NCBI GenBank assembly: GCA_051362555.1
Contig: CM120643.1
Coordinates: 21,084,848 to 21,148,847 of the forward strand
DNA: 64,000 nucleotides
DNA from: Lingula anatina
Lineage: Eukaryota; Animalia; Brachiopoda
Direction: 5' to 3'
How positions within the stretch are numbered: position 1 is the first letter of the stretch; every line of letters begins with the position of its first letter. The translations under genes and the position numbers were made by a program. The notes below the pieces were generated by a model that did no database searches, was not told where the DNA came from, and saw nothing but the letters and a program-made list of their open reading frames with translations. Positions 2,542 to 60,646 of this stretch are shown here, piece by piece.

Positions 2542-2882
2542 TAATGTCTCCTTCCAATTCGTTATGCTTTTTGTAACTGGCCTCATTAGCCTTCACATTC
2601 CAAAAGGCAATTGTTCATTAAATATAAGACCCCAGAACAGTAGTAGGCGTAAGTGGCACTGATGTCAGGCACGCCTACTGCAGCTGTTAGGGAGTAATTA
2701 AACAAATGATGTGATTAAACCATGTATTTCAACTTAATTTAGAAATATTTAAATGGCAGATGCAATATTCTGTAAGAATGTTTCATAATTTTCAGCTGTA
2801 ATTTCAGTTCTCAGGTAAAGAAAAAAAATCATGAGAAGGTACCTCTTCAGCATTGCCCTCTTTTCAACCATTTGGAATAAAG

Positions 2883-5800
2883 GAATAAGAGGCACAGAAG
2901 GCCCACCAGGCACAGGAGGTCCACCAGGCACAGGAGGTCCACCAGGTACTGGAGGCCCACCAGGAACAGGAGGTCCACCAGGAACAGGAGGCCCACCAGG
3001 TACAGGAGGTCCACCAGGAACAGGAGGTCCACCAGGAACAGGAGGTCCACCAGGAACAGGAGGCCCACCAGGCACAGGAGGTCCACCAGGCACAGGAGGT
3101 CCACCAGGCACAGGAGGTCCACCAGGAACAGGAGGTCCACCTGGTACAGGAGGTCCACCAGGAACAGGAGGTCCACCAGGAACAGGAGGTCCACCAGGAA
3201 CAGGAGGTCCACCAGGTACTGGAGGCCCACCAGGCACTGGGGGCCCACCAGGTACAGGTGGTCCCCCAGGAACAGGAGGTCCCCCAGGAACAGGAGGTCC
3301 ACCAGGTACAGGAGGTCCACCAGGTACAGGAGGTCCACCAGGTACAGGAGGTCCCCCAGGAACAGGAGGTCCACCAGGAACAGGTGGTCCACCAGGTACT
3401 GAAGGCCCACCAGGCACAGGAGGTCCACCAGGCACAGGTGGTCCACCAGGTACAGGAGGTCCACCAGGTACTGGAGGCCCACCAGGAACAGGAGGTCCAC
3501 CAGGTACAGGAGGTCCACCAGGCACTGGAGGCCCACCAGGAACAGGAGGTCCACCAGGCACAGGAGGTCCACCAGGTACTGGAGGCCCACCAGGAACAGG
3601 AGGTCCACCAGGCACTGGGGGCCCACCAGGTACAGGAGGTCCACCAGGCACAGGAGGTCCACCAGGAACAGGAGGCCCACCAGGTACAGGAGGTCCACCA
3701 GGCACAGGAGGTCCACCAGGCACAGGAGGTCCACCAGGAACAGGAGGTCCCCCAGGAACAGGAGGTCCACCAGGTACAGGAGGTCCACCAGGTACAGGAG
3801 GTCCACCAGGCACAGGAGGTCCACCAGGCACAGGAGGTCCACCAGGTACAGGAGGCCCACCAGGTACTGGAGGCCCACCAGGAACAGGAGGTCCACCAGG
3901 CACAGGAGGCCCACCAGGAACAGGAGGTCCACCAGGCACAGGAGGTCCCCCAGGAACAGGAGGTCCACCAGGTACAGGAGGTCCACCAGGCACTGGGGGC
4001 CCACCAGGTACAGGAGGTCCACCAGGCACAGGAGGTCCACCAGGCACAGGAGGCCCACCAGGAACAGGAGGTCCACCAGGTACAGGTGGTCCACCAGGAA
4101 CAGGAGGTCCCCCAGGAACAGGAGGTCCACCAGGAACAGGAGGTCCACCAGGTACAGGAGGTCCACCAGGTACTGGAGGCCCACCAGGAACAGAAGGTCC
4201 ACCAGGTACAGGAGGTCCACCAGGTACTGGAGGCCCACCAGGAACAGGAGGTCCACCAGGTACAGGAGGTCCACCAGGTACAGGAGGTCCACCAGGTACT
4301 GGAGGCCCACCAGGAACAGGTGGTCCACCAGGCACAGGAGGCCCACCAGGAACAGGAGGTCCACCAGGAACAGGAGGTCCACCAGGTACAGGTGGTCCAC
4401 CAGGCACAGTAGGTCCCCCAGGAACAGGAGGTCCACCAGGCACAGGAGGTCCACCAGGCACTGGAGGCCCACCAGGAACAGGAGGTCCACCAGGCACTGG
4501 AGGCCCACCAGGAACAGGAGGTCCACCAGGCACAGGAGGTCCACCAGGTACTGGAGGCCCACCAGGAACAGGAGGTCCACCAGGCACAGGAGGTCCACCA
4601 GGTACTGGAGGCCCACCAGGAACAGGAGGTCCACCAGGCACTGGAGGCCCACCAGGAACAGGAGGTCCACCAGGCACAGGAGGTCCACCAGGTACTGGAG
4701 GCCCACCAGGAACAGGAGGTCCACCAGGCACTGGGGGCCCACCAGGTACAGGAGGTCCACCAGGCACAGGAGGTCCACCAGGAACAGGAGGCCCACCAGG
4801 TACAGGAGGTCCACCAGGCACAGGAGGTCCACCAGGCACAGGAGGTCCACCAGGAACAGGAGGTCCACCAGGTACTGGAGGCCCACCAGGAACAGGAGGT
4901 CCACCAGGCACTGGGGGCCCACCAGGTACAGGAGGTCCACCAGGCACAGGAGGTCCACCAGGTACTGGAGGGCCACCAGGAACAGGAGGCCCACCAGGTA
5001 CAGGAGGTCCACCAGGAACAGGAGGTCCCCCAGGAACAGGAGGTCCACCAGGAACAGGAGGTCCACCAGGAACAGGAGGCCCACCAGGAACAGGAGGTCC
5101 ACCAGGCACAGGAGGACCACCAGGCACAGCAGGTCCACCAGGCACAGGAGGTCCACCAGGAACAGGAGGCCCACCAGGTACAGGAGGTCCACCAGGCACA
5201 GGAGGTCCACCAGGCACAGGAGGCCCACCAGGAACAGGAGGTCCACCAGGAACAGGAGGTCCACCAGGTACAGGAGGTCCACCAGGAACAGGAGGTCCAC
5301 CAGGCACAGGAGGTCCACCAGGCACAGGAGGTCCACCAGGAACAGGAGGTCCACCAGGTACTGGAGGCCCACCAGGAACAGGAGGTCCACCAGGCACTGG
5401 GGGCCCACCAGGTACAGGAGGTCCACCAGGCACAGGAGGTCCACCAGGTACTGGAGGTCCACCAGGCACTGGGGGCCCACCAGGTACAGGTGGTCCACCA
5501 GGAACAGGAGGTCCCCCAGGAACAGGAGGTCCACCAGGTACAGGAGGTCCACCAGGTACAGGAGGTCCACCAGGCACAGGAGGTCCACCAGGCACAGGAG
5601 GTCCACCAGGTACAGGAGGCCCACCAGGAACAGGAGGTCCACCAGGCACAGGAGGTCCACCAGGTACTGGAGGCCCACCAGGAACAGGAGGTCCACCAGG
5701 CACTGGGGGCCCACCAGGTACAGGAGGTCCACCAGGCACAGGAGGTCCACCAGGAACAGGAGGCCCACCAGGTACAGGAGGTCCACCAGGCACAGGAGGT

Positions 5801-8561
5801 CCACCAGGCACAGGAGGTCCACCAGGAACAGGAGGTCCACCAGGTACTGGAGGCCCACCAGGAACAGGAGGTCCACCAGGCACTGGGGGCCCACCAGGTA
5901 CAGGAGGTCCACCAGGCACAGGAGGTCCACCAGGTACTGGAGGTCCACCAGGCACTGGGGGCCCACCAGGTACAGGTGGTCCACCAGGCACTGGGGGCCC
6001 ACCAGGTACAGGAGGTCCATCAGGCACAGGAGGTCCACCAGGAACAGGAGGCCCACCAGGTACAGGAGGTCCACCAGGCACAGGAGGTCCACCAGGCACA
6101 GGAGGTCCACCAGGAACAGGAGGTCCACCAGGTACTGGAGGCCCACCAGGAACAGGAGGTCCACCAGGCACTGGGGGCCCACCAGGTACAGGAGGTCCAC
6201 CAGGCACAGGAGGTCCACCAGGTACTGGAGGTCCACCAGGCACTGGAGGCCCACCAGGAACAGGAGGTCCACCAGGCACTGGGGGCCCACCAGGAACAGG
6301 AGGTCCACCAGGAACAGGAGGTCCACCAGGAACAGGAGGCCCACCAGGAACAGGAGGTCCACCAGGCACAGGAGGACCACCAGGCACAGCAGGTCCACCA
6401 GGCACAGGAGGGCCACCAGGAACAGGAGGCCCACCAGGTACAGGAGGTCCACCAGGCACAGGAGGTCCACCAGGCACAGGAGGTCCACCAGGTACTGGAG
6501 GTCCACCAGGCACTGGGGGCCCACCAGGTACAGGTGGTCCACCAGGAACAGGAGGTCCCCCAGGAACAGGAGGTCCACCAGGAACAGGAGGTCCACCAGG
6601 AACAGGAGGTCCACCAGGAACAGGAGGTCCACCAGGCACAGGAGGACCACCAGGCACAGCAGGTCCACCAGGCACAGGAGGGCCACCAGGAACAGGAGGC
6701 CCACCAGGTACAGGAGGTCCACCAGGCACAGGAGGTCCACCAGGTACAGCAGGTCCACCAGGCACAGGAGGGCCACCAGGAACAGGAGGTCCACCAGGTA
6801 CAGGAGGTCCACCAGGTACGGGAGGTCCACCAGGTACTGGAGGCCCACCAGGAACAGGAGGTCCACCAGGCACAGGAGGCCCACCAGGCACAGGAGGTCC
6901 ACCAGGAACAGTAGGTCCACCAGGCACAGGAGGCCCACCAGGAACAGGAGGTCCACCAGGAACAGGAGGTCCACCAGGAACAGGAGGTCCACCAGGTACA
7001 GGAGGTCCACCAGGAACAGGAGGTCCACCAGGTACAGGAGGCCCACCAGGAACAGGAGGTCCACCAGGAACAGGAGGTCCACCAGGCACAGGAGGCCCAC
7101 CAGGAACAGGAGGTCCACCAGGTACAGGAGGCCCACCAGGAACAGGAGGTCCACCAGGTACTGGAGGCCCACCAGGAACAGGAGGTCCACCAGGTACAGG
7201 AGGCCCACCAGGAACAGGAGGTCCACCAGGTACAGGTGGTCCACCAGGCACAGGAGGTCCCCCAGGAACAGGAGGTCCACCAGGAACAGGAGGTCCACCA
7301 GGAACAGGAGGTCCACCAGGAACAGGAGGTCCACCAGGCACAGGAGGACCACCAGGCACAGCAGGTCCACCAGGCACAGGAGGGCCACCAGGAACAGGAG
7401 GCCCACCAGGTACAGGAGGTCCACCAGGCACAGGAGGTCCACCAGGTACAGCAGGTCCACCAGGCACAGGAGGGCCACCAGGAACAGGAGGCCCACCAGG
7501 TACAGGAGGTCCACCAGGTACGGGAGGTCCACCAGGTACTGGAGGCCCACCAGGAACAGGAGGTCCACCAGGCACAGGAGGCCCACCAGGCACAGGAGGT
7601 CCACCAGGAACAGGAGGTCCACCAGGCACAGGAGGCCCACCAGGAACAGGAGGTCCACCAGGAACAGGAGGTCCACCAGGAACAGGAGGTCCACCAGGTA
7701 CAGGAGGTCCACCAGGAACAGGAGGTCCACCAGGTACAGGAGGCCCACCAGGAACAGGAGGTCCACCAGGTACAGGTGGTCCACCAGGCACAGGAGGTCC
7801 CCCAGGAACAGGAGGTCCACCAGGCACAGGAGGCCCACCAGGAACAGGAGGTCCACCAGGTACTGGAGGCCCACCAGGAACAGGAGGTCCACCAGGTACA
7901 GGAGGCCCACCAGGAACAGGAGGTCCACCAGGTACAGGTGGTCCACCAGGCACAGGAGGTCCCCCAGGAACAGGAGGTCCACCAGGCACAGGAGGCCCAC
8001 CAGGAACAGGAGGTCCACCAGGTACAGGAGGCCCACCAGGAACAGGAGGTCCACCAGGTACAGGTGGTCCACCAGGCACAGGAGGTCCCCCAGGAACAGG
8101 AGGTCCACCAGGCACAGGAGGCCCACCAGGAACAGGAGGTCCACCAGGTACTGGAGGCCCACCAGGAACAGGAGGTCCACCAGGTACAGGAGGCCCACCA
8201 GGAACAGGAGGTCCACCAGGTACAGGTGGTCCACCAGGCACAGGAGGTCCCCCAGGAACAGGAGGTCCACCAGGCACAGGAGGCCCACCAGGAACAGGAG
8301 GTCCACCAGGAACAGGAGGTCCACCAGGCACAGGAGGACCACCAGGTACAGGAGGTCCACCAGGAACAGGAGGTCCACCAGGAACAGGAGGCCCACCAGG
8401 TACAGGAGGTCCACCAGGCACAGGAGGTCCACCAGGTACTGGAGGCCCACCAGGTACAGGAGGTCCACCAGGCACAGGAGGTCCACCAGGTACTGGAGGC
8501 CCAACAGGTACAGGAGGACCACCAGGCACAGGAGGCCCACCAGGAACAGGAGGTCCACCAG
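2883..8561 (+). CDS. Repeat exon 1: (G)IR plus 315 GTGGPP-type units (5679 nt)
   Basis: Lies in ORF 2831..8584. Candidate acceptor aaAG|GA at 2881-2882; donor CCAG|gtaatt at 8562. Alternatively it starts at ATG 2831. Confidence 0.85.
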
Positions 8562-11500
8562 GTAATTCGCAATCAGTTGTCTGACTGCTGCAGCCACAGT
8601 CATAAATTGTTAAGTTACATCTCGATTAGATTACTGCAACTGCATTTTATATGGTTGTCCAAAGAAACAAATTGCCAGACTGCAGCACATTCAAAATATT
8701 TTGGCCAGATTATTAACTCGGACATCCACAAGCACGTCTCCCAAGTTTTAAAAAGTTTACACTGGCTACCTCTACAAGCCAGAATTTTATTCAAAATTTT
8801 AGTTTTTACTCACGATACTTTTCATGGATTGGCACCAATCTACATCAATGAATTAGTTAGTCACTATGTTCCAATGCGAAATCTGCGGTCTGTAGACCAA
8901 TTGCTACTCAACCCAGTAAAAATGCAATTAAAAACCTACGGTGACATATCTTTTAAAGCTGCAGGTCCAAAGGAATGGAATCTATTACCGCTGGAAATCC
9001 GAGCAATTCAGTCTACCAAACATTTAAAAAAAGAACTCAAAACATACCTTTTTTAGGAAATATTTTGATTAACTCTTAATTGGTTTTATCAATCTTGTAT
9101 TAATTGCATTTAATTGTATGGAATAATGGCTGTTTTACCTAGATTTTATTTATGATATTTTATGTAGTATTATTTATGATATTTTATGTAAAGTCTACTG
9201 AACTTTTTAAAAGATTTTAGACTTAAAATAAATTTATTATTATTAGGCACAGGAGGTCCACCAGGTACAGGAGGTCCACCAGGCACAGGAGGTCCACCAG
9301 GTACAGGAGGCCCACCAGGAACAGGAGGTCCACCAGGTACAGGAGGCCCACCAGGAACAGGAGGTCCACCAGGTACAGGAGGTCCACCAGGAACAGGAGG
9401 TCCACCAGGTACTGGAGGCCCACCAGGAACAGGAGGTCCACCAGGTACAGGTGGCCCACCAGGAACAGGAGGTCCACCAGGTACAGGTGGTCCACCAGGC
9501 ACAGGAGGTCCCCCAGGAACAGGAGGTCCACCAGGCACAGGAGGTCCACCAGGTACTGGAGGCCCACCAGGAACAGGAGGTCCACCAGGCACAGGAGGAC
9601 CACCAGGCACAGTAGGTCCACCAGGCACAGGAGGGCCACCAGGAACAGGAGGCCCACCAGGTACAGGAGGTCCACCAGGCACAGGAGGTCCACCAGGTAC
9701 TGGAGGCCCACCAGGAACAGCAGGTCCACCAGGCACAGGAGGCCCACCAGGAACAGGAGGTCCACCAGGTACAGGTGGTCCACCAGGAACAGGAGGCCCA
9801 CCAGGAACAGGAGGCCCACCAGGAACAGGAGGTCCACCAGGAACAGGAGGCCCACCAGGAACAGGAGGTCCACCAGGAACAGGAGGTCCACCAGGAACAG
9901 GAGGTCCACCAGGAACAGGAGGCCCACCAGGAACAGGAGGTCCACCAGGTACAGGAGGTCCACCAGGAACAGGAGGTCCACCAGGCACAGGAGGCCCACC
10001 AGGTACAGGAGGTCCACCAGGAACAGGAGGTCCACCAGGAACAGGAGGTCCACCAGGCACAGGAGGTCCACCAGGTACAGGAGGTCCACCAGGAACAGGA
10101 GGCCCACCAGGTACAGGAGGTCCACCAGGAACAGGAGGTCCACCAGGAACAGGAGGTCCACCAGGCACAGGAGGTCCACCAGGTACTGGAGGCCCACCAG
10201 GTACAGGAGGTCCACCAGGCACAGGAGGACCACCAGGTACTGGAGGCCCACCAGGTACAGGAGGACCACCAGGCACAGGAGGCCCACCAGGAACAGGAGG
10301 TCCACCAGGTAATTCGCAATCAGTTGTCTGACTGCTGCAGCCACAGTCATAAATTGTTTAGTTACATCTCGATTAGATAACTGCAACTCCATTTTATACG
10401 GTTGTCCAAAGAAACAAATTGCCAGACTGCAGCACATTCAAAATATTTCGTCCAGATTATTAACTCGGACATCCACAAGCAAACACGTCTCCCAAGTTTT
10501 AAAAAGTTTACACTGGCTACCTCTACAAGCCAGAATTTTATTCAAAATTTTAGTTTTTACTCACGATGCTTTTTATGGATTGGCACCAATCTACATCAAT
10601 GAATTAGTTAGTCACTATGTTCCAATGCGAAATCTGCGGTCTGTAGACCAATTGCTACTCAACCCAGTAAAAATGCAATTAAAAACCTATGGTGACATAT
10701 GTTTTAAAGCTGCAGGTCTAAAGGAATGGAATCTATTACCGCTGGAAATCCGAGCAATTCAGTCTACCAAACATTTTAAAAAAGAACTCAAAACATACCT
10801 TTTTTAGGAAATATTTTGATTAACTCTTAATTGGTTTTATCAATCTTGTATTAATTGCATTTAATTGTATGGAATAATGGCTGTTTTACCTAGATTTTAT
10901 TTATGATATTTTATGTAGTATTATTTATGATATTTTATGTAAAGTCTACTGAACATTTTAAAAGGATTTTAGACTTAAAATAAATTTATTATTATTAGGC
11001 ACAGGAGGTCCACCAGGTACAGGAGGTCCACCAGGTACTGGAGGTCCACCAGGTACAGGAGGTCCACAAGGTACTGGAGGCCCACCAGGAACAGGAGGTC
11101 CACCAGGCACAGGAGGCCCACCAGGAACAGGAGGTCCACCAGGAACAGGAGGTCCACCAGGTACTGGAGGCCCACCAGGAACAGGAGGTCCACCAGGCAC
11201 TGGGGGCCCACCAGGAACAGGAGGTCCACCAGGCACAGGAGGTCCACCAGGTACTGGAGGCCCACCAGGAACAGGAGGTCCACCAGGTACAGGTGGTCCA
11301 CCAGGAACAGGAGGTCCCCCAGGAACAGGAGGTCCACCAGGAACAGGAGGTCCCCCAGGAACAGGAGGTCCACCAGGAACAGGAGGTCCACCAGGTACTG
11401 GAGGCCCACCAGGCACAGGAGGTCCACCAGGCACAGGAGGTCCACCAGGAACAGGAGGTCCACCAGGTACTGGAGGCCCACCAGGAACAGGAGGTCCACC

Positions 11501-14500
11501 AGGCACTGGGGGCCCACCAGGAACAGGAGGTCCACCAGGCACAGGAGGTCCACCAGGTACTGGAGGCCCACCAGGAACAGGAGGGCCACCAGGCACAGGA
11601 GGACCACCAGGTACAGCAGGTCCACCAGGCACAGGAGGGCCACCAGGAACAGGAGGTCCACCAGGTACAGGAGGTCCACCAGGCACAGGAGGTCCACCAG
11701 GTACTGGAGGCCCACCAGGTACAGGAGGTCCACCAGGCACAGGAGGACCACCAGGTACTGGAGGCCCACCAGGTACAGGAGGACCACCAGGCACAGGAGG
11801 CCCACCAGGAACAGGAGGTCCACCAGGTAATTCGCAATCAGTTGTCTGACTGCTGCAGCCACAGTCATAAATTGTTTAGTTACATCTCGATTAGATAACT
11901 GCAACTCCATTTTATACGGTTGTCCAAAGAAACAAATTGCCAGACTGCAGCACATTCAAAATATTTCGTCCAGATTATTAACTCGGACATCCACAAGCAA
12001 ACACGTCTCCCAAGTTTTAAAAAGTTTACACTGGCTACCTCTACAAGCCAGAATTTTATTCAAAATTTTAGTTTTTACTCACGATGCTTTTTATGGATTG
12101 GCACCAATCTACATCAATGAATTAGTTAGTCACTATGTTCCAATGCGAAATCTGCGGTCTGTAGACCAATTGCTACTCAACCCAGTAAAAATGCAATTAA
12201 AAACCTATGGTGACATATGTTTTAAAGCTGCAGGTCTAAAGGAATGGAATCTATTACCGCTGGAAATCCGAGCAATTCAGTCTACCAAACATTTTAAAAA
12301 AGAACTCAAAACATACCTTTTTTAGGAAATATTTTGATTAACTCTTAATTGGTTTTATCAATCTTGTATTAATTGCATTTAATTGTATGGAATAATGGCT
12401 GTTTTACTTAGATTTTATTTATGATATTTTATGTAGTATTATTTATGATATTTTATGTAAAGTCTACTGAACATTTTAAAAGGATTTTAGACTTAAAATA
12501 AATTTATTATTATTAGGCACAGGAGGTCCACCAGGTACAGGAGGTCCACCAGGTACAGGAGGTCCACCAGGAACAGCAGGTCCACCAGGCACAGGAGGGC
12601 CACCAGGAACAGGAGGCCCACCAGGTACAGGAGGTCCACCAGGCACAGGAGGTCCACCAGGTACAGCAGGTCCACCAGGCACAGGAGGGCCACCAGGAAC
12701 AGGAGGCCCACCAGGTACAGGAGGTCCACCAGGTACGGGAGGTCCACCAGGTACTGGAGGCCCACCAGGAACAGGAGGTCCACCAGGCACAGGAGGCCCA
12801 CCAGGCACAGGAGGTCCACCAGGAACAGGAGGTCCACCAGGCACAGGAGGCCCACCAGGAACAGGAGGTCCACCAGGAACAGGAGGTCCACCAGGAACAG
12901 GAGGTCCACCAGGTACAGGAGGTCCACCAGGAACAGGAGGTCCACCAGGTACAGGAGGCCCACCAGGAACAGGAGGTCCACCAGGTACAGGTGGTCCACC
13001 AGGCACAGGAGGTCCCCCAGGAACAGGAGGTCCACCAGGCACAGGAGGCCCACCAGGAACAGGAGGTCCACCAGGTACTGGAGGCCCACCAGGAACAGGA
13101 GGTCCACCAGGTACAGGAGGCCCACCAGGAACAGGAGGTCCACCAGGTACAGGTGGTCCACCAGGCACAGGAGGTCCACCAGGCACAGGAGGCCCACCAG
13201 GAACAGGAGGTCCACCAGGAACAGGAGGTCCACCAGGCACAGGAGGACCACCAGGTACAGGAGGTCCACCAGGAACAGGAGGTCCACCAGGAACAGGAGG
13301 CCCACCAGGTACAGGAGGTCCACCAGGCACAGGAGGTCCACCAGGTACTGGAGGCCCACCAGGTACAGGAGGTCCACCAGGCACAGGAGGTCCACCAGGT
13401 ACTGGAGGCCCACCAGGTACAGGAGGACCACCAGGCACAGGAGGCCCACCAGGAACAGGAGGTCCACCAGGTAATTCACAATCAGTTGTCTGACTGCTGC
13501 AGCCACAGTCATAAATTGTTAAGTTACATCTCGATTAGATTACTGCAACTGCATTTTATACGGTTGTCCAAAGAAACAAATTGCCAGACTGCAGCACATT
13601 CAAAATATTTTGGCCAGATTATTAACTCGGACATCCACAAGCAAACACGTCTCCCAAGTTTTAAAAAGTTTACACTGGCTACCTCTACAAGACAGAATTT
13701 TATTCAAAATTTTAGTTTTTACTCACGATACTTTTCATGGATTGGCACCAATCTACATCAATGAATTAGTTAGTCACTATGTTCCAATGCGAAATCTGCG
13801 GTCTGTAGACCAATTGCTACTCAACCCAGTAAAAATGCAATTAAAAACCTACGGTGACATATCTTTTAAAGCTGCAGGTCCAAAGGAATGGAATCTATTA
13901 CCGCTGGAAATCCGAGCAATTCAGTCTACCAAACATTTAAAAAAAGAACTCAAAACATACCTTTTTTAGGAAATATTTTGATTAACTCTTAATTGGTTTT
14001 ATCAATCTTGTATTAATTGCATTTAATTGTATGGAATAATGGCTGTTTTACCTAGATTTTATTTATGATATTTTATGTAGTATTATTTATGATATTTTAT
14101 GTAAAGTCTACTGAACATTTTAAAAGATTTTAGACTTAAAATAAATTTATTATTATTAGGCACAGGAGGTCCACCAGGTACAGGAGGTCCACCAGGTACA
14201 GGAGGTCCACCAGGTACTGGAGGCCCACCAGGAACAGGAGGTCCACCAGGCACAGGAGGCCCACCAGGAACAGGAGGTCCACCAGGCACAGGAGGTCCAC
14301 CAGGTACTGGAGGCCCACCAGGAACAGGAGGTCCACCAGGCACAGGAGGCCCACCAGGAACAGGAGGTCCACCAGGCACAGGAGGTCCACCAGGCACAGG
14401 AGGTCCACCAGGCACTGGAGGCCCACCAGGTACAGGAGGTCCACCAGGTACTGGAGGCCCACCAGGAACAGGAGGTCCACCAGGCACAGGAGGTCCACCA

Positions 14501-17500
14501 GGAACAGGAGGCCCACCAGGTACAGGAGGTCCACCAGGCACAGGAGGTCCACCAGGTACAGGAGGTCCACCAGGAACAGGAGGTCCACCAGGCACAGGAG
14601 GACCACCAGGTACAGCAGGTCCACCAGGCACAGGAGGGCCACCAGGCACAGGAGGACCACCAGGTACAGCAGGTCCACCAGGCACAGGAGGGCCACCAGG
14701 AACAGGAGGACCACCAGGCACAGGAGGTCCACCAGGTACTGGAGGCCCACCAGGTACAGGAGGACCACCAGGCACAGGAGGCCCACCAGGAACAGGAGGT
14801 CCACCAGGTAATTCGCAATCAGTTGTCTGACTGCTGCAGCCACAGTCATAAATTGTTTAGTTACATCTCGATTAGATTACTGCAACTCCATTTTATACGG
14901 TTGTCCAAAGAAACAAATTGCCAGACTGCAGCACATTCAAAATATTTCGGCCAGATTATTAACTCCGACATCCACAAGCAAACACGTCTCCCAAGTTTTA
15001 AAAAGTTTACACTGGCTACCTCTACAAGCCAGAATTTTATTCAAAATTTTAGTTTTTACTCACGATGCTTTTTATGGATTGGCACCAATCTACATCAATG
15101 AATTAGTTAGTCACTATGTTCCAATGCGAAATCTGCGGTCTGTAGACCAATTGCTACTCAACCCAGTAAAAATGCAATTAAAAACCTACGGTGACATATC
15201 TTTTAAAGCTGCAGGTCCAAAGGAATGGAATCTATTACCGCTGGAAATCCGAGCAATTCAGTCTACCAAAAATTTTTAAAAAGAACTCAAAACATACCTT
15301 TTTTAGGAAATATTTTGATTAACTCTTAATTGGTTTTATACATCTTGTATTAATTGCATTTAATTGTATGGAATAATGGCTGTTTTACCTAGATTTTATT
15401 TATGATATTTTATGTAGTATTATTTATGATATTTTATGTAAAGTCTACTGAACATTTTAAAAGGATTTTAGACTTAAAATAAATTTATTATTATTAGGCA
15501 CAGGAGGTCCACCAGGTACAGGAGGTCCACCAGGTACAGGAGGTCCACCAGGTACTGGAGGCCCACCAGGAACAGGAGGTCCACCAGGCACAGGAGGTCC
15601 ACCAGGTACTGGAGGCCCACCAGGTACTGGAGGTCCACCAGGCACAGGAGGCCCACCAGGAACAGGAGGTCCACCAGGTAATTCGCAATCAGTTGTCTGA
15701 CTCTGTTGCAGCCACAGTCATAAATTGTTTAGTTACATCTCGATTAGATTACTGCAACTCCATTTTATACAGTTGTCCAAAGAAACAAATTGTCAGACTG
15801 CAGCATATTCAAAATATTTCGTCCAGATTATTAACTCGGACATCCACAAGCAAACACGTCTCCCAAGTTTTAAAAAGTTTACACTGGCTACCTCTACAAG
15901 CCAGAATTTTATTCAAATTTTTAGTTTTTACTCACGATGCTTTTTATGGATTGGCACCAATCTACATCAATGAATTAGTTAGTCACTATGTTCCAATGCG
16001 AAATCTGCGGTCTGTAGACCAATTGCTACTCAACCCAGTAAAAATGCAATTAAAAACCTATGGTGACATATGTTTTAAAGCTGCAGGTCTAAAGGAATGG
16101 AATCTATTACCGCTGGAAATCCGAGCAATTCAGTCTACCAAACATTTTAAAAAAGAACTCAAAACATACCTTTTTTAGGAAATATTTTGATTAACTCTTA
16201 ATTGGTTTTATCAATCTTGTATTAATTGCATTTAATTGTATGGAATAATGGCTGTTTTACCTAGATTTTATTTATGATATTTTATGTAGTATTATTTATG
16301 ATATTTTATGTAAAGTCTACTGAACATTTTAAAAGGATTTTAGACTTAAAATAAATTTATTATTATTAGGCACAGGAGGTCCACCAGGTACAGGAGGTCC
16401 ACCAGGTACTGGAGGTCCACCAGGTACAGGAGGTCCACCAGGTACTGGAGGCCCACCAGGAACAGGAGGTCCACCAGGCACAGGAGGCCCACCAGGAACA
16501 GGAGGTCCACCAGGAACAGGAGGTCCACCAGGTACTGGAGGCCCACCAGGAACAGGAGGTCCACCAGGCACTGGGGGCCCACCAGGAACAGGAGGTCCAC
16601 CAGGCACAGGAGGTCCACCAGGTACTGGAGGCCCACCAGGAACAGGAGGTCCACCAGGTACAGGTGGTCCACCAGGAACAGGAGGTCCCCCAGGAACAGG
16701 AGGTCCACCAGGAACAGGAGGTCCCCCAGGAACAGGAGGTCCACCAGGAACAGGAGGTCCACCAGGTACTGGAGGCCCACCAGGCACAGGAGGTCCACCA
16801 GGCACAGGAGGTCCACCAGGAACAGGAGGTCCACCAGGTACTGGAGGCCCACCAGGAACAGGAGGTCCACCAGGCACTGGGGGCCCACCAGGAACAGGAG
16901 GTCCACCAGGCACAGGAGGTCCACCAGGTACTGGAGGCCCACCAGGAACAGGAGGGCCACCAGGCACAGGAGGACCACCAGGTACAGCAGGTCCACCAGG
17001 CACAGGAGGGCCACCAGGAACAGGAGGTCCACCAGGTACAGGAGGTCCACCAGGCACAGGAGGTCCACCAGGTACTGGAGGCCCACCAGGTACAGGAGGT
17101 CCACCAGGCACAGGAGGACCACCAGGTACTGGAGGCCCACCAGGTACAGGAGGACCACCAGGCACAGGAGGTCCACCAGGAACAGGAGGTCCACCAGGTA
17201 ATTCGCAATCAGTTGTCTGACTGCTGCAGCCACAGTCATAAATTGTTTAGTTACATCTCGATTAGATAACTGCAACTCCATTTTATACGGTTGTCCAAAG
17301 AAACAAATTGCCAGACTGCAGCACATTCAAAATATTTCGTCCAGATTATTAACTCGGACATCCACAAGCAAACACGTCTCCCAAGTTTTAAAAAGTTTAC
17401 ACTGGCTACCTCTACAAGCCACCCAGATAGCAAAGAGTGGTCGCGCCAACGTCGGCCCGACGACTTTGCCTCCGTCGGGCCAACGTTGGCAGACGACGTC

Positions 17501-20500
17501 GGTTCGAAGTCGGCGTGTCCGGCGGCCCGCCGTCGGCCCACCGGTGGTCTGCCACCCTTTTGCCAACGTCGCACCGACGCTGGGCCGACGTCATTATGGA
17601 TAAACGGCGGTCAGCCGCTGTCATGCCGACAATTTGCCAACTTCGCGCCAACGTCGGGCCAACGTCGTTATGAGCTATTACTACCGGCGGTTAGCCGCTG
17701 TTATGCCGACCTTTTGCCGACGTCGCGCCAACGTTGGGCCAATGTCGTTATGAGCTATTACTATCGGCGGTTAGCCGCTGTTATGCCAACGGTGCCACCT
17801 TCTTGCCAACTTCGCGCCAACGTCGTTAACCATCGTTTTACCACCGTTATGCAAATAATGCCGTTCTTTAATTAGCCAATGTTATTATGGACTCTCCATG
17901 GTCAGCCAGCTATGACTCAATTGGCGAACGTTGGCAATAGGGTAGCAGCGGCGTTTCTTCGTAATAACCCTCTCACTGAAGTGAAAAAGTCCCGTTGGCC
18001 TAAAAGATAATAATAATAACAACTTGAATCATGTTTTGTGAAGAAACATCTTTATAAATCTGAGTGAGTTAATAACGATAATTCAATTAATTATTGAAAA
18101 TAAATATTATTACTGATGTATCTCTAAAGATCTACTTTACAGATGTCATATATAATCCAAGCTTTCGGTCCCTAGGCCTTCTATAGAGACATTAAAAAAA
18201 TGGCGAAGAAAAACTCCTGGGGTATGTGGCGTCGATGATGTATTAAAGGCACGCGATGCTGCAAAAGCGTCCTAAACGCTAAACGTAACATATAAAAAAT
18301 CAATATTCATTTAAGAAACTATTGTCCCTACTGAGTCCATTATTCAAGGTGTCTAGTGTTCTAATACATTTCTGTACGGCGATCCGTCTTTGCCTAGTGT
18401 CGTTTTCTTTTAAGACGGTGACGGTGATGCCTTTAGCTGAGTGTTGTGTTGTCCCACAGGCACGAAGAGGTTTTTGTTGTTTATAGGGCAGCGGTGGTGT
18501 CTAATTCTGTCTTTTAATTTCTGCCTCGTTTCCCCGACGTACATTTGATGGCATTGTTAACATCATATCAAATAGATGACGCTCTGTGAGTCGCAAGATT
18601 TGCAGCATATCTTTGACTACGACACTACGCTGGAAAGAAGTGACTGTGGCCTTAATTCCCACACGGGACGAAGAGGAATGATGATGATGACTAAGATTCA
18701 TCTGAGGAACTCTGCTGCGGCGCCTGGGCTGCTTCTCTCTCTGTGAAGAGAATAGAAAAATATAAAAACTCACACTTAATCTAATAAAACATACAAAATT
18801 CACCGTTAATATCATATGTTATTTCACTGATATGCAAAATAAAAAACGGCTAAGAAGACAACTGAAACCAAGCTTAAGGAATCTAGCATGATACTGATCC
18901 ACGTTTCTCTAACTATTATTTTTCTATTTGCGATGTGAAATGTTCTAAACTTTATGAGGTCAGGGACAGACAGGTTAGTTTTGTACGCTCGATTTTGGCC
19001 GCAACGAATCAACAATCCATGTTTCTCTATCGTATTATTGAACCGTTGGTTTCAGTTGTCTTCTAATGACTTATTTCCTAGTTCGCATCCAATCCACCCG
19101 CGCTTATTCGTAATGTTGCATATTGAAATGAAGTTGTTAATGTATACTTTGAAATGTAGACGAAATAATGTAATTATTTTCCAGGGAAGTGGTTACTCTG
19201 CTAAATTTATTACCCTTCTTCTTCTCCAGCCTCCTCCTTCTACCCCCATCCCTGTCACTAGTTACATATATTTTAAGAAGAATAATGTACTAAATTCCAG
19301 AAGAGAGTAGCAGGCAAGAAGTAGGCTAAATTAATTTCTTAGTTGTTTACTACTTAATCCATTGATAGGGATGATATAAGTTAAACTACTGCATCTTACC
19401 ATGGCAATGACACACTGAAGCACTTTAACTATATACACACATACCTTTCAAGTGTATTTTCTTGTGAGGATTGACTGCTCAACACAGGCGACAAATAGGT
19501 AGTAATGCATGATGGAAGACTATAAGAGAAATATGAGATACATATTAAGTGTGGCTTTGTAATGTGCACAAAATGCCTTGTCTAATTATGAGCCTAAACC
19601 AAAAAAAAAAAAAAAACATTATTATCCCAGCAGGCAAATCAACATTGAATCAATGTTGAATCAACATTGATGGTCAACGTTGAAATGATGTTGATATGAC
19701 GTTGACTATGAAAGTTGACTCAACGTTGAACCATCAAGGTTGAATCAACCTTGAGGTATCAATGTTGAATCAACATTGACGGTCAATGTTGAAACTATGT
19801 TGATATGACGTTGACTATGAAAGTTGACTCAACGTTGAACCATCAAGGTTGAATCAACCTTGAGGTCTCAATGTTGAATCAATGTTGACGGTCAACGTTG
19901 AAACTGTTGATATGACGTTGACTATGAAAGTTGAATCAACGTTGAACCATCAAGGTTGAATCAACCTTGAGGTTTCAATGTTGAATCAACGTTGAAAGTC
20001 AACGTTGAAACTATGTTGATGTGACGTTGACTATGAAAGTTGACTCAACGTTGAACCATCAAGGTTGAATCAACCTTGAGGTATCAATGTTGAATCAACG
20101 TTGACAGTCAACATTGAAACTTTGTTGATATGACGTTGACTATGAAAGTTGAATCAACGTTGAACCATCAAGGTTGAATCAACCTTGAACCATCATGGTT
20201 GAAACAACCCTGACGTATCAATGTTGAATCAACATTGATACCTCAATGTTGAATCAATGTTGAAATAAAGTTGAATTTGAAAATTGAATTAACGTTGATA
20301 TATCAATTAGGCTATCAGGATATTTGATTGAAATTTGCCTGATGGCTGAAGGTGTTCTCCAAGATATTAACCATTTCTTGAAATAAAAAGACTCAGATCT
20401 GAAAAGGGGGGGAAATTAGGAAAATTACCTACAAAAAAAGGTAATTTCGGAAGAAAAGGGGGGTGGGGTCCAGACCCCGGGACCGGCCCCTGTATCCACC

Positions 20501-23500
20501 TATGGGTCGTCAGATTCTTTTAAAACTTTCCAGTTTGATGCTCAGTGTTACGGACCAAAACAGCCCGAACATAAAAAAACACAAACAAACTAACTTTACT
20601 ATGAATATAATATATTTCAAACAATGAACATACACTACATAAACTAACTACATGTAATACTATCATGTTGCATAAACTTTAACATTTGTCAAATTCAGTT
20701 AAATTCTAACAGATTCATAGACAGTTAAGTTTTGAAGATGCAATGTCACAGTTTTACGAGTCCTTTTCTGTTAAACGTTCCTCCTGATAGTGTGGGGTTT
20801 TGAAGACGCAATGTCACCGTTTTCCATGTCCATTTCTGTTGAACGATCCTCCTGATAGTGTGGGGTTTTGAAGACGAAATGTCACCGTTTTCTATGTCCT
20901 TATCTGTTGAACGATCCTCCTGATAGTGTGGCCTCACAAAGTACTGTTAATAAAGTACAGTTTTTGTACTGTAAAAGTGTTACACACTGTCCACACTCAC
21001 TTGTTGCATCAGTTCATGTTATCCGGGGTCACGCACTTAATAACAGTCCCGCACTTCATTTACATTATACAAGTATGCAGTCACATACGGTAATTACTCA
21101 TAAAAATTAAACAACAAATTAGCTTTACTAAAATAATTTTAATGTCACATCAGGTAGCTAAGATAATTTTAAGAATACAAAAACAAAGAGTCACCAGTCT
21201 AATTTTTTTCTCACAGCTAACTTAAATTTCCAGAAAAACAGGCATTTTTGGCTTTTTCAAGCTTTTTCTTCAACCTTGAGTAAAATTTTGTCAATTTGCC
21301 ATGAGGTAAGGCTGGTGACCCTATGTTTTTTTTTTCTTTTTCTTAAAGATAACCTGTGGAAAGTTTTAAAAAAACTGACGACCGCTTTTTTCACAAAATT
21401 AATTTTAATGAAAAAGGGGTAAAACAAGTGTTTTATGAGGGGTAATTACCCCTATGCATACCTCTCTAGTGAGATAATCATTTAAAACTATTATCAAGGT
21501 TATGATTAAGGTTATAAAGTTAAGGTTGGCCCAATGTTGAGATCCAGTTGATATGTCAACAATGACAAAGGGTTTACAAACACAGGTTGATTCAATGTTG
21601 AAATCCTGTTGATCTATCAACATTGAAAACTGATTGACAAAGAAAGGTAAAATCAATGTTGAGACCCTGTTGATCTATCAACATTGACAATTGGTTGACA
21701 AGAAAAGGTTGATTCAATGTTGAAATCCTGTTGATGTATCAACATTGACAATTGATTGACAAAGAAAGGTTAAATCAATGTTGAGACCCTGTTGATCTAT
21801 CAACATTGACAATTGGTTGACAAGAAAAGGTTGATTCAATGTTGAGATCTTGTTGATCTATCAATATTGATGGATCAACATCATCTCAACCTATCCTCAA
21901 TGTTGAATCAACGTTGAGTGCCCGCTGGGATATCATACCCTGTGGGTATTTGACTAAACATCTAGAAAAAAATTCAATTTAAACTTCCCCCCCCCCCCTC
22001 CCTAAAAAAAACCACCTCTGGATATTTTAGGTTAGCCTACTGAGGTCCATTTTTGAACAGAAAACCTGTAAAAATCTGAGTGGACATTATACCCCTTAAT
22101 GCTAAACTCAGTTTGGAATGTATGCCATAAGGTTTATCCAGTGTTAAACCCATGCTGACATTATAAGTTTACATGTTAGTATCATGCAGCCTTGCTATAT
22201 ACCCCTATTATATAAGCATTTCAAATTAAACTAGAGAAAATATAAACAATATATACTCCTAAGTACAAAAAAAGTACTAGAACGTTGCTCATTCACATTT
22301 ATAAATTGTCTATACATGAAATGTGGTAATTGAAATGTCTTTCAAAGCATAAAAGAATTTGAGCGGGAAAATCTTTTTAGCCGCCGGAAACCCAACGTCG
22401 CCCCGACGTTGGTTCAAAGGTGGCATGCAGCGCGCCAACTGCCTGCAGCTACGACTAACAAATTATTGACAGATTTGCTTGTTTTCGTTAATTCATCTAC
22501 AACAAATAAACCTCCACCTATAGTACGAAAAACATAAACACTTTAAAGTAAATACTTACCTAACAATTTGGTGCAAAATACGGAAAATATGAAATAACCG
22601 TCAAGTGCACTTGCAACGATCTATGGCCGCTTAGTGTGGGTGACCTCGATTTGAAATTGGCCGCTTAGTGCAAATCAAGCACAGCTGGTGAGCCACCGTT
22701 ATACCGACGTCGGGCCGACGGCGTGAAGCAGTCGTCGGCCCGACGTCGGGTCACCAGTAGTGGCCCGACGCACAGCTGATGAGCCACCGTTATACCGACG
22801 TCGGGCCGACGGCGTGAAGCAGTCGTCGGCCCGACGTCGGGTCACTAGTAGTGGCCCGACGTCGGCCCGACAACGACTGCCGACCGCGACCGTGCCGACC
22901 AATGCCGACGTCGGCCCGACCGCTCATTGCTATCTGGGCAGAATTTTATTCAAAATTTTAGTTTTTACTCACGATGCTTTTTATGGATTGGCACCAATCT
23001 ACATCAATGAATTAGTTAGTCACTATGTTCCAATGCGAAATCTGCGGTCTGTAGACCAATTGCTACTCAACCCAGTAAAAATGCAATTAAAAACCTATGG
23101 TGACATATGTTTTAAAGCTGCAGGTCTAAAGGAATGGAATCTATTACCGCTGGAAATCCGAGCAATTCAGTCTACCAAACATTTTAAAAAAGAACTCAAA
23201 ACATACCTTTTTTAGGAAATATTTTGATTAACTCTTAATTGGTTTTATCAATCTTGTATTAATTGCATTTAATTGTATGGAATAATGGCTGTTTTACCTA
23301 GATTTTATTCATGATATTTTATGTAGTATTATTTATGATATTTTATGTAAAGTCTACTGAACATTTTAAAAGGATTTTAGACTTAAAATAAATTTATTAT
23401 TATTAGGCACAGGAGGTCCACCAGGTACAGGAGGTCCACCAGGCACAGGAGGTCCACCAGGTACAGGAGGCCCACCAGGAACAGGAGGTCCACCAGGTAC

Positions 23501-26500
23501 AGGAGGCCCACCAGGAACAGGAGGTCCACCAGGTACAGGAGGTCCACCAGGAACAGGAGGTCCACCAGGTACTGGAGGCCCACCAGGAACAGGAGGTCCA
23601 CCAGGTACAGGTGGCCCACCAGGAACAGGAGGTCCACCAGGTACAGGTGGTCCACCAGGCACAGGAGGTCCCCCAGGAACAGGAGGTCCACCAGGCACAG
23701 GAGGTCCACCAGGTACTGGAGGCCCACCAGGAACAGGAGGTCCACCAGGCACAGGAGGACCACCAGGTACAGCAGGTCCACCAGGCACAGGAGGGCCACC
23801 AGGAACAGGAGGCCCACCAGGTACAGGAGGTCCACCAGGTACAGGAGGTCCACCAGGTACTGGAGGCCCACCAGGAACAGCAGGTCCACCAGGCACAGGA
23901 GGCCCACCAGGAACAGGAGGTCCACCAGGTACAGGTGGTCCACCAGGAACAGGAGGCCCACCAGGAACAGGAGGCCCACCAGGAACAGGAGGTCCACCAG
24001 GAACAGGAGGCCCACCAGGAACAGGAGGTCCACCAGGAACAGGAGGTCCACCAGGTACTGGAGGCCCACCAGGAACAGGAGGTCCACCAGGCACAGGAGG
24101 CCCACCAGGAACAGGAGGTCCACCAGGTACAGGAGGTCCACCAGGAACAGGAGGTCCACCAGGCACAGGAGGCCCACCAGGTACAGGAGGTCCACCAGGA
24201 ACAGGAGGTCCACCAGGCACAGGAGGTCCACCAGGTACAGGAGGTCCACCAGGAACAGGAGGCCCACCAGGTACAGGAGGTCCACCAGGAACAGGAGGTC
24301 CACCAGGAACAGGAGGTCCACCAGGCACAGGAGGCCCACCAGGTACTGGAGGCCCACCAGGTACAGGAGGTCCACCAGGCACAGGAGGACCACCAGGTAC
24401 TGGAGGCCCACCAGGTACAGGAGGACCACCAGGCACAGGAGGCCCACCAGGAACAGGAGGTCCACCAGGTAATTCGCAATCAGTTGTCTGACTGCTGCAG
24501 CCACAGTCATAAATTGTTTAGTTACATCTCGATTAGATAACTGCAACTCCATTTTATACGGTTGTCCAAAGAAACAAATTGCCAGACTGCAGCACATTCA
24601 AAATATTTCGTCCAGATTATTAACTCGGACATCCACAAGCAAACACGTCTCCCAAGTTTTAAAAAGTTTACACTGGCTACCTCTACAAGCCAGAATTTTA
24701 TTCAAAATTTTAGTTTTTACTCACGATGCTTTTTATGGATTGGCACCAATCTACATCAATGAATTAGTTAGTCACTATGTTCCAATGCGAAATCTGCGGT
24801 CTGTAGACCAATTGCTACTCAACCCAGTAAAAATGCAATTAAAAACCTATGGTGACATATGTTTTAAAGCTGCAGGTCTAAAGGAATGGAATCTATTACC
24901 GCTGGAAATCCGAGCAATTCAGTCTACCAAACATTTTAAAAAAGAACTCAAAACATACCTTTTTTAGGAAATATTTTGATTAACTCTTAATTGGTTTTAT
25001 CAATCTTGTATTAATTGCATTTAATTGTATGGAATAATGGCTGTTTTACCTAGATTTTATTTATGATATTTTATGTAGTATTATTTATGATATTTTATGT
25101 AAAGTCTACTGAACATTTTAAAAGGATTTTAGACTTAAAATAAATTTATTATTATTAGGCACAGGAGGTCCACCAGGTACAGGAGGTCCACCAGGTACTG
25201 GAGGTCCACCAGGTACAGGAGGTCCACCAGGTACTGGAGGCCCACCAGGAACAGGAGGTCCACCAGGCACAGGAGGCCCACCAGGAACAGGAGGTCCACC
25301 AGGAACAGGAGGTCCACCAGGTACTGGAGGCCCACCAGGAACAGGAGGTCCACCAGGCACTGGGGGCCCACCAGGAACAGGAGGTCCACCAGGCACAGGA
25401 GGTCCACCAGGTACTGGAGGCCCACCAGGAACAGGAGGTCCACCAGGTACAGGTGGTCCACCAGGAACAGGAGGTCCCCCAGGAACAGGAGGTCCACCAG
25501 GAACAGGAGGTCCCCCAGGAACAGGAGGTCCACCAGGAACAGGAGGTCCACCAGGTACTGGAGGCCCACCAGGCACAGGAGGTCCACCAGGCACAGGAGG
25601 TCCACCAGGAACAGGAGGTCCACCAGGTACTGGAGGCCCACCAGGAACAGGAGGTCCACCAGGCACTGGGGGCCCACCAGGAACAGGAGGTCCACCAGGC
25701 ACAGGAGGTCCACCAGGTACTGGAGGCCCACCAGGAACAGGAGGGCCACCAGGCACAGGAGGACCACCAGGTACAGCAGGTCCACCAGGCACAGGAGGGC
25801 CACCAGGAACAGGAGGTCCACCAGGTACAGGAGGTCCACCAGGCACAGGAGGTCCACCAGGTACTGGAGGCCCACCAGGTACAGGAGGTCCACCAGGCAC
25901 AGGAGGACCACCAGGTACTGGAGGCCCACCAGGTACAGGAGGACCACCAGGCACAGGAGGTCCACCAGGAACAGGAGGTCCACCAGGTAATTCGCAATCA
26001 GTTGTCTGACTGCTGCAGCCACAGTCATAAATTGTTTAGTTACATCTCGATTAGATAACTGCAACTCCATTTTATACGGTTGTCCAAAGAAACAAATTGC
26101 CAGACTGCAGCACATTCAAAATATTTCGTCCAGATTATTAACTCGGACATCTACAAGCAAACACGTCTCCCAAGTTTTAAAAAGTTTACACTGGCTACCT
26201 CTACAAGCCAGAATTTTATTCAAAATTTTAGTTTTTACTCACGATGCTTTTTATGGATTGGCACCAATCTACATCAATGAATTAGTTAGTCACTATGTTC
26301 CAATGCGAAATCTGCGGTCTGTAGACCAATTGCTACTCAACCCAGTAAAAATGCAATTAAAAACCTATGGTGACATATGTTTTAAAGCTGCAGGTCTAAA
26401 GGAATGGAATCTATTACCGCTGGAAATCCGAGCAATTCAGTCTACCAAACATTTTAAAAAAGAACTCAAAACATACCTTTTTTAGGAAATATTTTGATTA

Positions 26501-47343: not shown

Positions 47344-47382
<39 letters not shown>

Positions 47383-50300: not shown

Positions 50301-50598
50301 CATATAACCTCTAGCTTTATTTTTCAATTCAGGTATGAAAGGCGACAGAGGGATGCCAGGTTTGAAAGGGATGAAAGGCATGAAAGGCAACAGAGGGACA
50401 GGTTCCAAGGGAATGAAGGGCGATAGAGGGATGCCGGGTTTCAATGGGATTAAAGGGATGAAAGGCGACAAAGGGAGAAGAGGTAACAGAGGGATGAAAG
50501 GCAACAGAGGGATGAAAGGCAACAAAGGGAGGAGAGGTAACAGAGGGATGAAGGGCTCCAAAGGATCCCCAGGTAGGATAATCAATTAAATTTGTTTT

Positions 50599-50647
<49 letters not shown>

Positions 50648-54761: not shown

Positions 54762-55104
54762 CTAAAAAGTTATGGAGATCGTGCTTTTATAATCTACGCC
54801 CCAAGAGTGTGGAATGGTCTACCAAATTTTATTAGGAAAACGGAAGACTTTGACAATTTTAAATCTCTTTTAAAGACCCACTTTTTTAATTCAGTCTATA
54901 TCTCTTAGATTTTATTTTAATATATATGTTTTTTTTTTTTTTTTTAATAAGATTGATTTTTAGTAGTGTAAATTTTAAATGGTTTCCAATGAGAGTTTAT
55001 GATTAAAATATTGTAGTCATTTTAATGATTTTAGTATATTAGCCATTATTGTAAGGCGCCTTGAGATAGAATGTAAGGCGCCATATAAGAATCTTATTAT
55101 TATT
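54762..55104 (+). mobile_element. 3' end of a different L2-clade LINE
   Basis: Translates LKSYGDRAFIIYAPRVWNGLPNFIRKTEDFDNFKSLLKTHFF; ends gtaaggcgccttgag...aaggcgccatataagaatc(tta)n. Confidence 0.8.
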
Positions 55105-58100: not shown

Positions 58101-58433
58101 GGGTCAGGGGCCTTTTAGTGGGCCCCGAATCCCACGGGGGGGGGGGGGGGGGGGGGGAAGGGAGGCTTTGCATCCGCGGACCCTCTTTCAAATCATTCCA
58201 GTACAATGATAAATATGTTTTATTACTTTAACAAAAGATTTATACATTCATCAAAAGATATACATGACCTTCATTTTATTGCAACATATCCCATGCAGTA
58301 TTTAGGGCGACAGGTAGGAACATTTAAGGGTTGGAAAATGGTGCAATACATGTATGGTTGCATTTGTAATATATATATGATATGTATACAATATTGTTGT
58401 GTTTGCAAAAATGTGTATGATATAAATGGAATT

Positions 58434-60430: not shown

Positions 60431-60646
60431 AATTAACAGTAAATCGAGTATGTCCTGAGGCTCTAAACACTTTATTGGTCCGCTTTTGGAACATCAGATG
60501 TACCGGTACCTGTTGGCAATGTGTCACTTCTAGTTTTTTTTTTACTTTTATTTGTTCAAATGTATATAGAATGGTCTATACCTCCGCAGTATACAGCGGA
60601 GGTATAGACTATTCTATATACATAACAACGCGTTCAATATTGCTGT

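Follow-up and report, generated by a model that had tools for sequence, protein, structure and literature searches.

How does a retrotransposon fragment come to serve as an intron inside a coding repeat, and what becomes of it there? The question is raised by a 64,000-nucleotide (nt) stretch of the brachiopod Lingula anatina (GenBank assembly GCA_051362555.1, contig CM120643.1, positions 21,084,848 to 21,148,847, forward strand; hereafter the window, in which all coordinates are counted). A predicted gene of the window, built mostly of an 18-nt repeat encoding GTGGPP, is interrupted at 8562-9246 by the end of a long interspersed nuclear element (LINE). The original prediction, made from the sequence letters, took this segment for a single intron consisting of a 5'-truncated L2 element from donor to acceptor. 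The segment turned out to be one of 17 copies lying between 8562 and 44832, all in one gene, and the amplification in cis had been missed. We consider it probable that a single intron was gained from a LINE, is spliced through signals of the host repeat and was then amplified in cis to 17 copies.

Copy 1 opens with GTAATTCGC, preceded by ...CCACCAG, and closes with ...TTATTATTATTAG, followed by GCACAGG, the frame being CCAG/GT...AG/GCAC (a slash marks a junction). The 17 copies have a mean identity of 98.5%, with on average 10.2 differing sites per pair (1.5%) and at most 17. The truncation point and the first base are identical in 17/17 copies. All 17 also have in common the 26 nt up to intron base 3, and 16/17 have in common the 22 nt of 3' flank.

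The fragment consists of the C-terminus of the second open reading frame (ORF2), an AT-rich 3' untranslated region, a weak hairpin, AATAAA and a (TTA)n tail, and by its sequence it is the 3' end of a 5'-truncated L2/CR1-type LINE. Copy 15, which retains 2 nt absent from 14/17 copies, translates in frame for 157 codons. Among 288 candidate proteins, 96 longer ones matched its translation at their C-terminus (E to 1.7e-40, identity 33-52%, query coverage mostly 94-100%), nearly all of them with a reverse transcriptase domain (PF00078) and many with an endonuclease domain (PF03372/PF14529), which bears out the ORF2 assignment made earlier. We take the SRLDYCN motif to mark L2 rather than CR1; the clade label comes from the ORF2 C-terminus, the fragment being without reverse transcriptase. 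The 3' hairpin predicted by folding two copies was non-significant against shuffles (z -0.43 and -1.11).

Relatives of the fragment were found among the RNA reads, for which five of nine RNA runs were compared, at 6-26% of each read set. In run X17, 137/168 reads were 90-95% alike to the intron copies, and the source family is thus transcribed under the same species label. The 2 nt missing from 14/17 copies are present in 8/9 of the relatives' reads, and a T found near the ORF end in all 17 copies is absent from 14/15; the LINE frame is restored in these reads at both shared indels. The extra T, at 9050-9058 and in the same place in all copies, yields CCTTTTTTAG/G and a premature stop in the LINE frame.

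Both ends of the fragment can be compared with LINE copies elsewhere. Elsewhere in the genome, or in transcripts, the LINE breaks off at the same (TTA)n tail, beyond which unrelated flanks follow (loose ends behind 44829-44831). On the 5' side, one DNA contig from run X3, of the same species label, extends upstream of intron base 3 in frame (...NI SA/IRNQ), in agreement with the NI-SAIR pattern of homologues. The view that the LINE fills the intron from donor to acceptor holds for the 3' end, which is the LINE's own, and fails at the other, where by this contig LINE identity starts at base 3 and the GT is not LINE-templated.

Are the copies removed as introns? The donor, which resembles the consensus, is CAG/GTAATT in 16/17 copies and CAG/GTAGTT in 1/17, the acceptor is TAG/G in 17/17, and the GT and AG dinucleotides are invariant throughout. 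Excising GT..AG restores the 18-nt period exactly, as had been claimed for copy 1, and all 17 repeat exons downstream of that copy are exact multiples of 18 nt. The intron copies carry seven indel events, five of which are not multiples of 3, plus two nested insertions. The repeat exons carry no frame-breaking indel, and 19 kb of downstream repeat is without stop or frameshift. Compared with the majority unit, the whole array has 1,709 third-position differences and 69 at first or second positions. Within exons 2-18 the triplet-first Gly is altered by 1/15 distinct amino-acid changes (expected one third, p 0.019) and in 1/26 changed unit types (p 4e-4), counts that depend on one another in part, since the array copies its own variants. 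The Y-position Gly, which has the same codon type and serves as a control for mutation bias, is changed in 29 units, as against 1 unit for the two triplet-first Gly. Retention of copy 1 would abolish any constraint downstream of it, and the protection of Gly in exons 2-18 therefore speaks for excision. A retained LINE reads G(N/S)SQSVV and a stop in 17/17 copies, so the in-frame stop that was foreseen on retention is present in each. On this DNA evidence the copies are likely excised as phase-1 spliceosomal introns.

Then, where would the splice sites have come from? Another genomic copy of the LINE reads ...AGT GC/A ATT CGC, with GCA where the intron has GTA; the donor T is thus not templated by that copy, and LINE identity begins at intron base 3. 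The 5' junction has AGGTA and the 3' junction AGGCA, a match at 4/5 positions; with a repeat of 18 bp, a duplication of 5 bp looks the same as one of 23 bp or as the deletion of 13 bp of target. The 3-bp AGG duplication put forward originally leaves the donor unexplained. We rejected it as a full account, given LINE identity from base 3 and flanks that fit about 5 bp with one mismatch. For L2 elements, the available part of PMC4245944 reports target-site duplications (TSDs) peaking at 3-5 bp and truncated inserts that often join by microhomology.

We propose that the LINE inserted in sense orientation where a Pro and a Gly codon of the GTGGPP repeat meet (CCA GGN ACA), duplicating ~5 bp as is usual for L2. 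The duplicated AG would supply the acceptor behind the (TTA)n tail, and CAG/GTA together with the ATT of the LINE would make the donor CAG/GTAATT, so that excision would bring back both the codon and the period of 18 nt. The donor T may go back to a Gly codon GGT of the host, or a GC donor may later have changed from C to T; the data fit both. By one route (A), AGGCA would have been duplicated perfectly with a 3-nt GCA microhomology, the GC donor later becoming GT. By another (B), AGGTA would have been duplicated and its 3' copy altered at the Gly wobble base, which is the most variable site of the array. The third (C) would involve a 13-nt target deletion or a 23-nt duplication. Whichever route was taken, the AG and the surroundings of the donor would come from the host repeat, and the data fit an origin of both splice dinucleotides from the host, or by one later substitution. 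Windows of 5 bp with AGGT make up 11% of the repeat vs 0.6% of the downstream flanking DNA, and those with AGGT or AGGC make up 17% of the repeat.

Several observations weigh against this reading, in part against excision and in part against direct insertion. The acceptor is weak, with 9 pyrimidines (all T) in -20..-4 vs 10-14 for the five host acceptors; of the six acceptor types in the gene it has the fewest pyrimidines, and at least 8 AGs inside the intron outscore it, including CCTTTTTTAG/G at -190. An AATAAA lies in the tail, 14 nt ahead of the acceptor. Some of the apparent constraint could be due to gene conversion from exon 1, and the location of both nested insertions in introns is weak evidence, introns occupying 11.7 of 36.4 kb (p ~0.1). 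No spliced reads were seen in the five RNA runs, in which the gene is barely covered. As to the insertion, the one mismatch in the 5-bp flank calls for one extra event, and the native upstream LINE sequence depends on the single contig that supplies the loose end before 44145. The five other introns of the gene are all phase 1, so that an older intron at a Gly codon would suit its style.

The RNA searches were made at both ends of the array. When copy 17 with 72-nt flanks was compared with runs X11, X14 and X17, no joint across the LINE appeared among the matches listed; X11 did not cover the flanks at all (depth 0), and X14 and X17 covered them to a depth of at most ~5 per strand. The reads of X17 inside the LINE differ from the main intron letter in 14/14 cases at 44314, 44316 and 44321 and in 15/15 at 44328, and because of these letters they are assigned to other LINE copies. 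Exons 20-23, compared with X17, X14, X18 and X15, had a depth of at most 0.8, with no exon-exon joint among the best 15 of 47 matches. Short reads are a poor test of splicing here, because a junction can be told from ordinary exon sequence only by exact arms of 29-38 nt.

The points against excision would be explained if the LINE were mostly or wholly unspliced, the protein ending at GNSQSVV or the transcript at AATAAA. Exon 1, which alone would encode ~1,900 amino acids with a putative signal peptide, would then give a secreted protein, and the rest would be a passenger tidied by gene conversion. The weak acceptor, the stronger cryptic AGs and the AATAAA all suit this account. Against it, the triplet-first Gly is spared by the private variants of exons 2-18, the 19 kb of downstream repeat has stayed without stop or frameshift, the exons for collagen and for the transmembrane helix have remained intact with their frame preserved, and the splice dinucleotides are invariant in 17/17 copies. 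We regard it as improbable; partial retention, as a minor secreted isoform, would fit with excision as the best explanation.

A second alternative concerns the origin. The LINE may have inserted into an older phase-1 intron, of which deletions left only the terminal GT(A) and AG before the amplification. Splice dinucleotides that are not LINE-templated suit this view, as do the five other phase-1 introns. It needs two deletions ending exactly at the LINE ends, with the natural tail abutting the AG. A near-perfect 5-bp duplication with 1-3 nt of microhomology suits direct L2 insertion instead, and 5.7 kb of the same repeat in exon 1 are intron-free. This view seems to us a little less probable still than an unspliced LINE. 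Gain from a truncated LINE inserted into the coding repeat, as proposed originally, is thus upheld by the frame, by selection on the downstream exons and by both LINE ends as compared with other copies; splicing is the part that we infer.

What has multiplied the intron to 17 copies? The block of 3,270 nt that runs from exon 2 through intron 3 is found again, at 99.4%, from exon 8 through intron 9. Exon 3 also recurs twice, its 828 nt showing 2 mismatches. In the four-gamete test 39/210 informative site pairs fail and are incompatible with a single tree. With identical breakpoints, block duplications and mosaic copies, the data suggest that exon-plus-intron blocks multiplied in cis, presumably by unequal crossing-over with gene conversion. 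The LINE itself would be dead, the copying being done by the array and not by retrotransposition.

Could the LINE instead have targeted the repeat in 17 independent insertions, as an active introner? The target sequence is present over a thousand times in the gene. The 17 copies, in contrast, have an identical 5' truncation and share differences from their relatives, such as the extra T near the ORF end; the duplicated blocks cover exon and intron together, and other copies of the family lie in unrelated flanks. Identical breakpoints in all 17 copies therefore rule against separate insertions, and we rejected them as exceedingly unlikely. The label of introner, which implies independent transposition to many sites, was likewise rejected because all 17 copies share truncation point and flanks within one gene.

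An assembly artefact of the repeat is just as remote an explanation of the array. The region is highly repetitive, and copies 2 and 8 have identical sequences. Set against this are 46 segregating sites with structured haplotypes among the 17 copies, and two private nested insertions. In DNA run X3, which belongs to another study, a 92-nt contig with intron-type letters has a depth of 2,033 vs 43-218 for seven other listed pieces, which fits amplification without proving it. This contig has A at 44330, vs G in all 17 copies here. It fits an array homogenized differently in another individual, with no junction-spanning piece among those listed, and it may also be a dispersed young LINE subfamily.

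Coordinates of the array, of the LINE parts of copy 1 and of the predicted host gene are collected in Table 1.

Table 1. Positions in the window of the LINE-derived intron copies and of the host gene model.
Feature	Position	Strand	Remarks
LINE-derived intron copy 1	8562..9246	+	main finding; 685 nt
ORF2 C-terminal remnant, L2/CR1-type LINE	8564..9072	+	frameshifted in copy 1
LINE 3' end	9191..9244	+	weak stem-loop 9191-9224, AATAAA 9227-9232, (TTA)n tail 9234-9244 = acceptor region
LINE intron copy 2	10309..10998	+	
LINE intron copy 3	11827..12516	+	
LINE intron copy 4	13471..14159	+	
LINE intron copy 5	14808..15497	+	
LINE intron copy 6	15678..16369	+	
LINE intron copy 7	17198..23406	+	holds nested 5,517-nt inverted-repeat element
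LINE intron copy 8	24469..25158	+	
LINE intron copy 9	25987..26676	+	
LINE intron copy 10	28927..29616	+	
LINE intron copy 11	30787..31476	+	
LINE intron copy 12	32809..33497	+	
LINE intron copy 13	35514..36203	+	
LINE intron copy 14	38472..39801	+	donor GTAGTT; holds nested ~630-nt insert
LINE intron copy 15	40810..41477	+	LINE frame kept for 157 codons
LINE intron copy 16	41964..42630	+	
LINE intron copy 17	44143..44832	+	
Host gene model	2831..52369	+	23 exons, 22 phase-1 GT-AG introns; from DNA, not complementary DNA
Exon 1	2831..8561	+	ATG, hydrophobic N-terminus, ~316 GTGGPP units
Last repeat exon	44833..45408	+	32 units, end GQKGMK
Exon 19, collagen-type	46080..46127	+	
Exon 20, collagen GMK repeats	50333..50572	+	Pfam PF01391, E 5e-18, 65.1 bits (cut-off 27.2)
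Exon 21, non-collagen stalk	50813..50998	+	
Exon 22, non-collagen stalk	51397..51528	+	
Exon 23, transmembrane helix, tail, stop	52080..52369	+	

Removal of the 17 LINE copies and of five ordinary introns leaves a predicted open reading frame of 25,635 nt (8,544 amino acids) with one stop, at the end. The predicted product is a single-pass membrane protein with ~8,200 residues of near-pure GTGGPP. A putative signal peptide would be followed by 1,370 GTGGPP units, Gly-Met-Lys collagen exons, a stalk, a transmembrane helix and a short tail. The Gly-X-Y region starts at residue 21, behind a hydrophobic N-terminus, and the best hydrophobic 19-mer, at residue 8481, has a Kyte-Doolittle value of 3.27. 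The triplet-first residue is non-Gly once in 1,370 hexapeptides, as in a collagen-like protein. A Gly at the Y position and a Thr at every sixth residue suggest, for this predicted protein, an atypical collagen or a polyproline-II, glycosylated rod. Pfam gave no match for the first 100 amino acids of exon 1 and only matches below the cut-off for the tail exon. No host homologue was found with the tail exon or repeat exon 2 as queries, and the best hit of an ESM Atlas search for one, at 0.78, was unusable. Between 50250 and 52700, other DNA runs of the same species label contain 8-25% of the sampled words, and two contain 65-82%; the low share suggests high polymorphism at the locus.

Two of the intron copies have themselves received insertions. 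The element in copy 7 (17422-22938; 5,517 nt), presumably EnSpm/CACTA-like, has CCCAG..CTGGG ends, a 2-bp CA duplication, 35-nt imperfect inverted ends and internal satellites. A second CCCAG..CTGGG-bounded element lies inside it at ~19626-21930, and a similarly bounded one is found at ~1603-2544. The insert in copy 14 (38518-39155) is ~630 nt long and poly(T)-led, with a duplication of ~8 bp, and probably derives from the 3' end of a further retroelement lying in antisense. Upstream of the gene, 86-392 and 1091-1400 form a 310-nt direct duplicate (92.6%). Downstream, a second, unrelated L2-like 3' fragment at 54700-55107 (..YGDRAF..APRVWNGLP..LKTHFF..) carries a (TTA)n tail as well as a 3' hairpin that is significant (z -3.41). 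Further on, 58430-59055 and 59810-60434 form a 626-nt inverted repeat of 99.4% identity with a 750-nt core between its arms, which is either a foldback or long terminal-inverted-repeat element or a local inversion duplication.

What does the locus add? The kind of mechanism by which the intron would be gained is already known; what would be new is that the source is a truncated L2, that its tail acts as acceptor and that the intron was amplified 17-fold in a collagen-like gene for a predicted membrane-anchored protein of ~8,500 amino acids. The case presents both LINE ends, a source family still transcribed in the same species and a host contribution to both splice sites, and it links one putative gain to a 17-fold increase in introns that would have needed no new transposition. 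A search of the literature, largely of that outside subscription, found no report of a LINE-derived intron amplified in cis in a repetitive gene. Tentatively, Gly/Pro coding repeats might act as carpets of proto-splice sites, which could turn a dead LINE into a phase-1 intron, possibly through a GC-donor intermediate, and multiply it in cis. The gene may then be a source, caught in the act, of homogenized introns like those of silk and collagen-like genes, with turnover of copy number and sequence ongoing between individuals.

Animal intron gains with a traceable source are rare, and LINE-derived ones rarer. The original prediction had treated retrotransposon-derived introns as unprecedented, yet introners from elements without long terminal repeats (non-LTR) are published, including a sea-urchin LINE family. 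They make up ~5% of classified introner families in the available part of PMC12130899, the largest survey, whose supplementary file 8 holds 14 'non-LTR' rows with one animal, Strongylocentrotus purpuratus fam1; the comparison covers all 14 rows and 11 of the 18 'LINE' places in that file, and files 13 and 14 may contain more. The family is given there as LINE/I-Jockey, with 4 introns of ~7.1 kb, 'co-opt both' and a 5-bp TSD. As in that family, the LINE here makes the whole intron and both splice sites would come from a 5-bp duplicated target. Unlike it, the copies are 5'-truncated L2-type fragments of 0.69 kb in one gene, with identical breakpoints and DNA duplication in place of transposition. 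The insertion thus resembles a non-LTR introner, yet it fails in independent spread to many sites.

That a transposon can create an intron by duplicating AGGT at both of its ends is a standard model, as far as the available parts of PMC3443670 (Yenerall and Zhou 2012) and PMC11282704 go. The locus agrees with it in the putative duplication of AG/G(T) on both sides, which would allow precise excision. It differs in that the 3' copy is AGGC, which means an imperfect duplication or a GC donor at the start, and in its target, a coding repeat crowded with proto-splice sites. With the zebrafish ZfL2-1 elements of the L2 clade, as described in the accessible portion of PMC4245944, the fragment shares 5' truncation and a specific 3' end, as well as a putative ~5-bp TSD and putative 5'-junction microhomology. 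Unlike theirs, its clade is assigned from the ORF2 C-terminus only, the reverse transcriptase domain being absent from the fragment.

The closest parallel for the array is found in spider silk. Homogenized novel introns are described in the Argiope MaSp2 and flagelliform silk genes, with unequal crossing-over proposed, in PMC9779670, the available text of which names no intron source ('transpos' and 'mobile' have 0 occurrences in the main text). There as here the introns are near-identical (97.6% in silk, 98.5% here) and interspersed in a Gly/Pro-rich repetitive gene. Unlike the silk introns, those of Lingula are separated by exons of widely varying size (10-126 units), and their source is identifiable end to end as a LINE, a possible origin for the identical introns of repetitive structural-protein genes.
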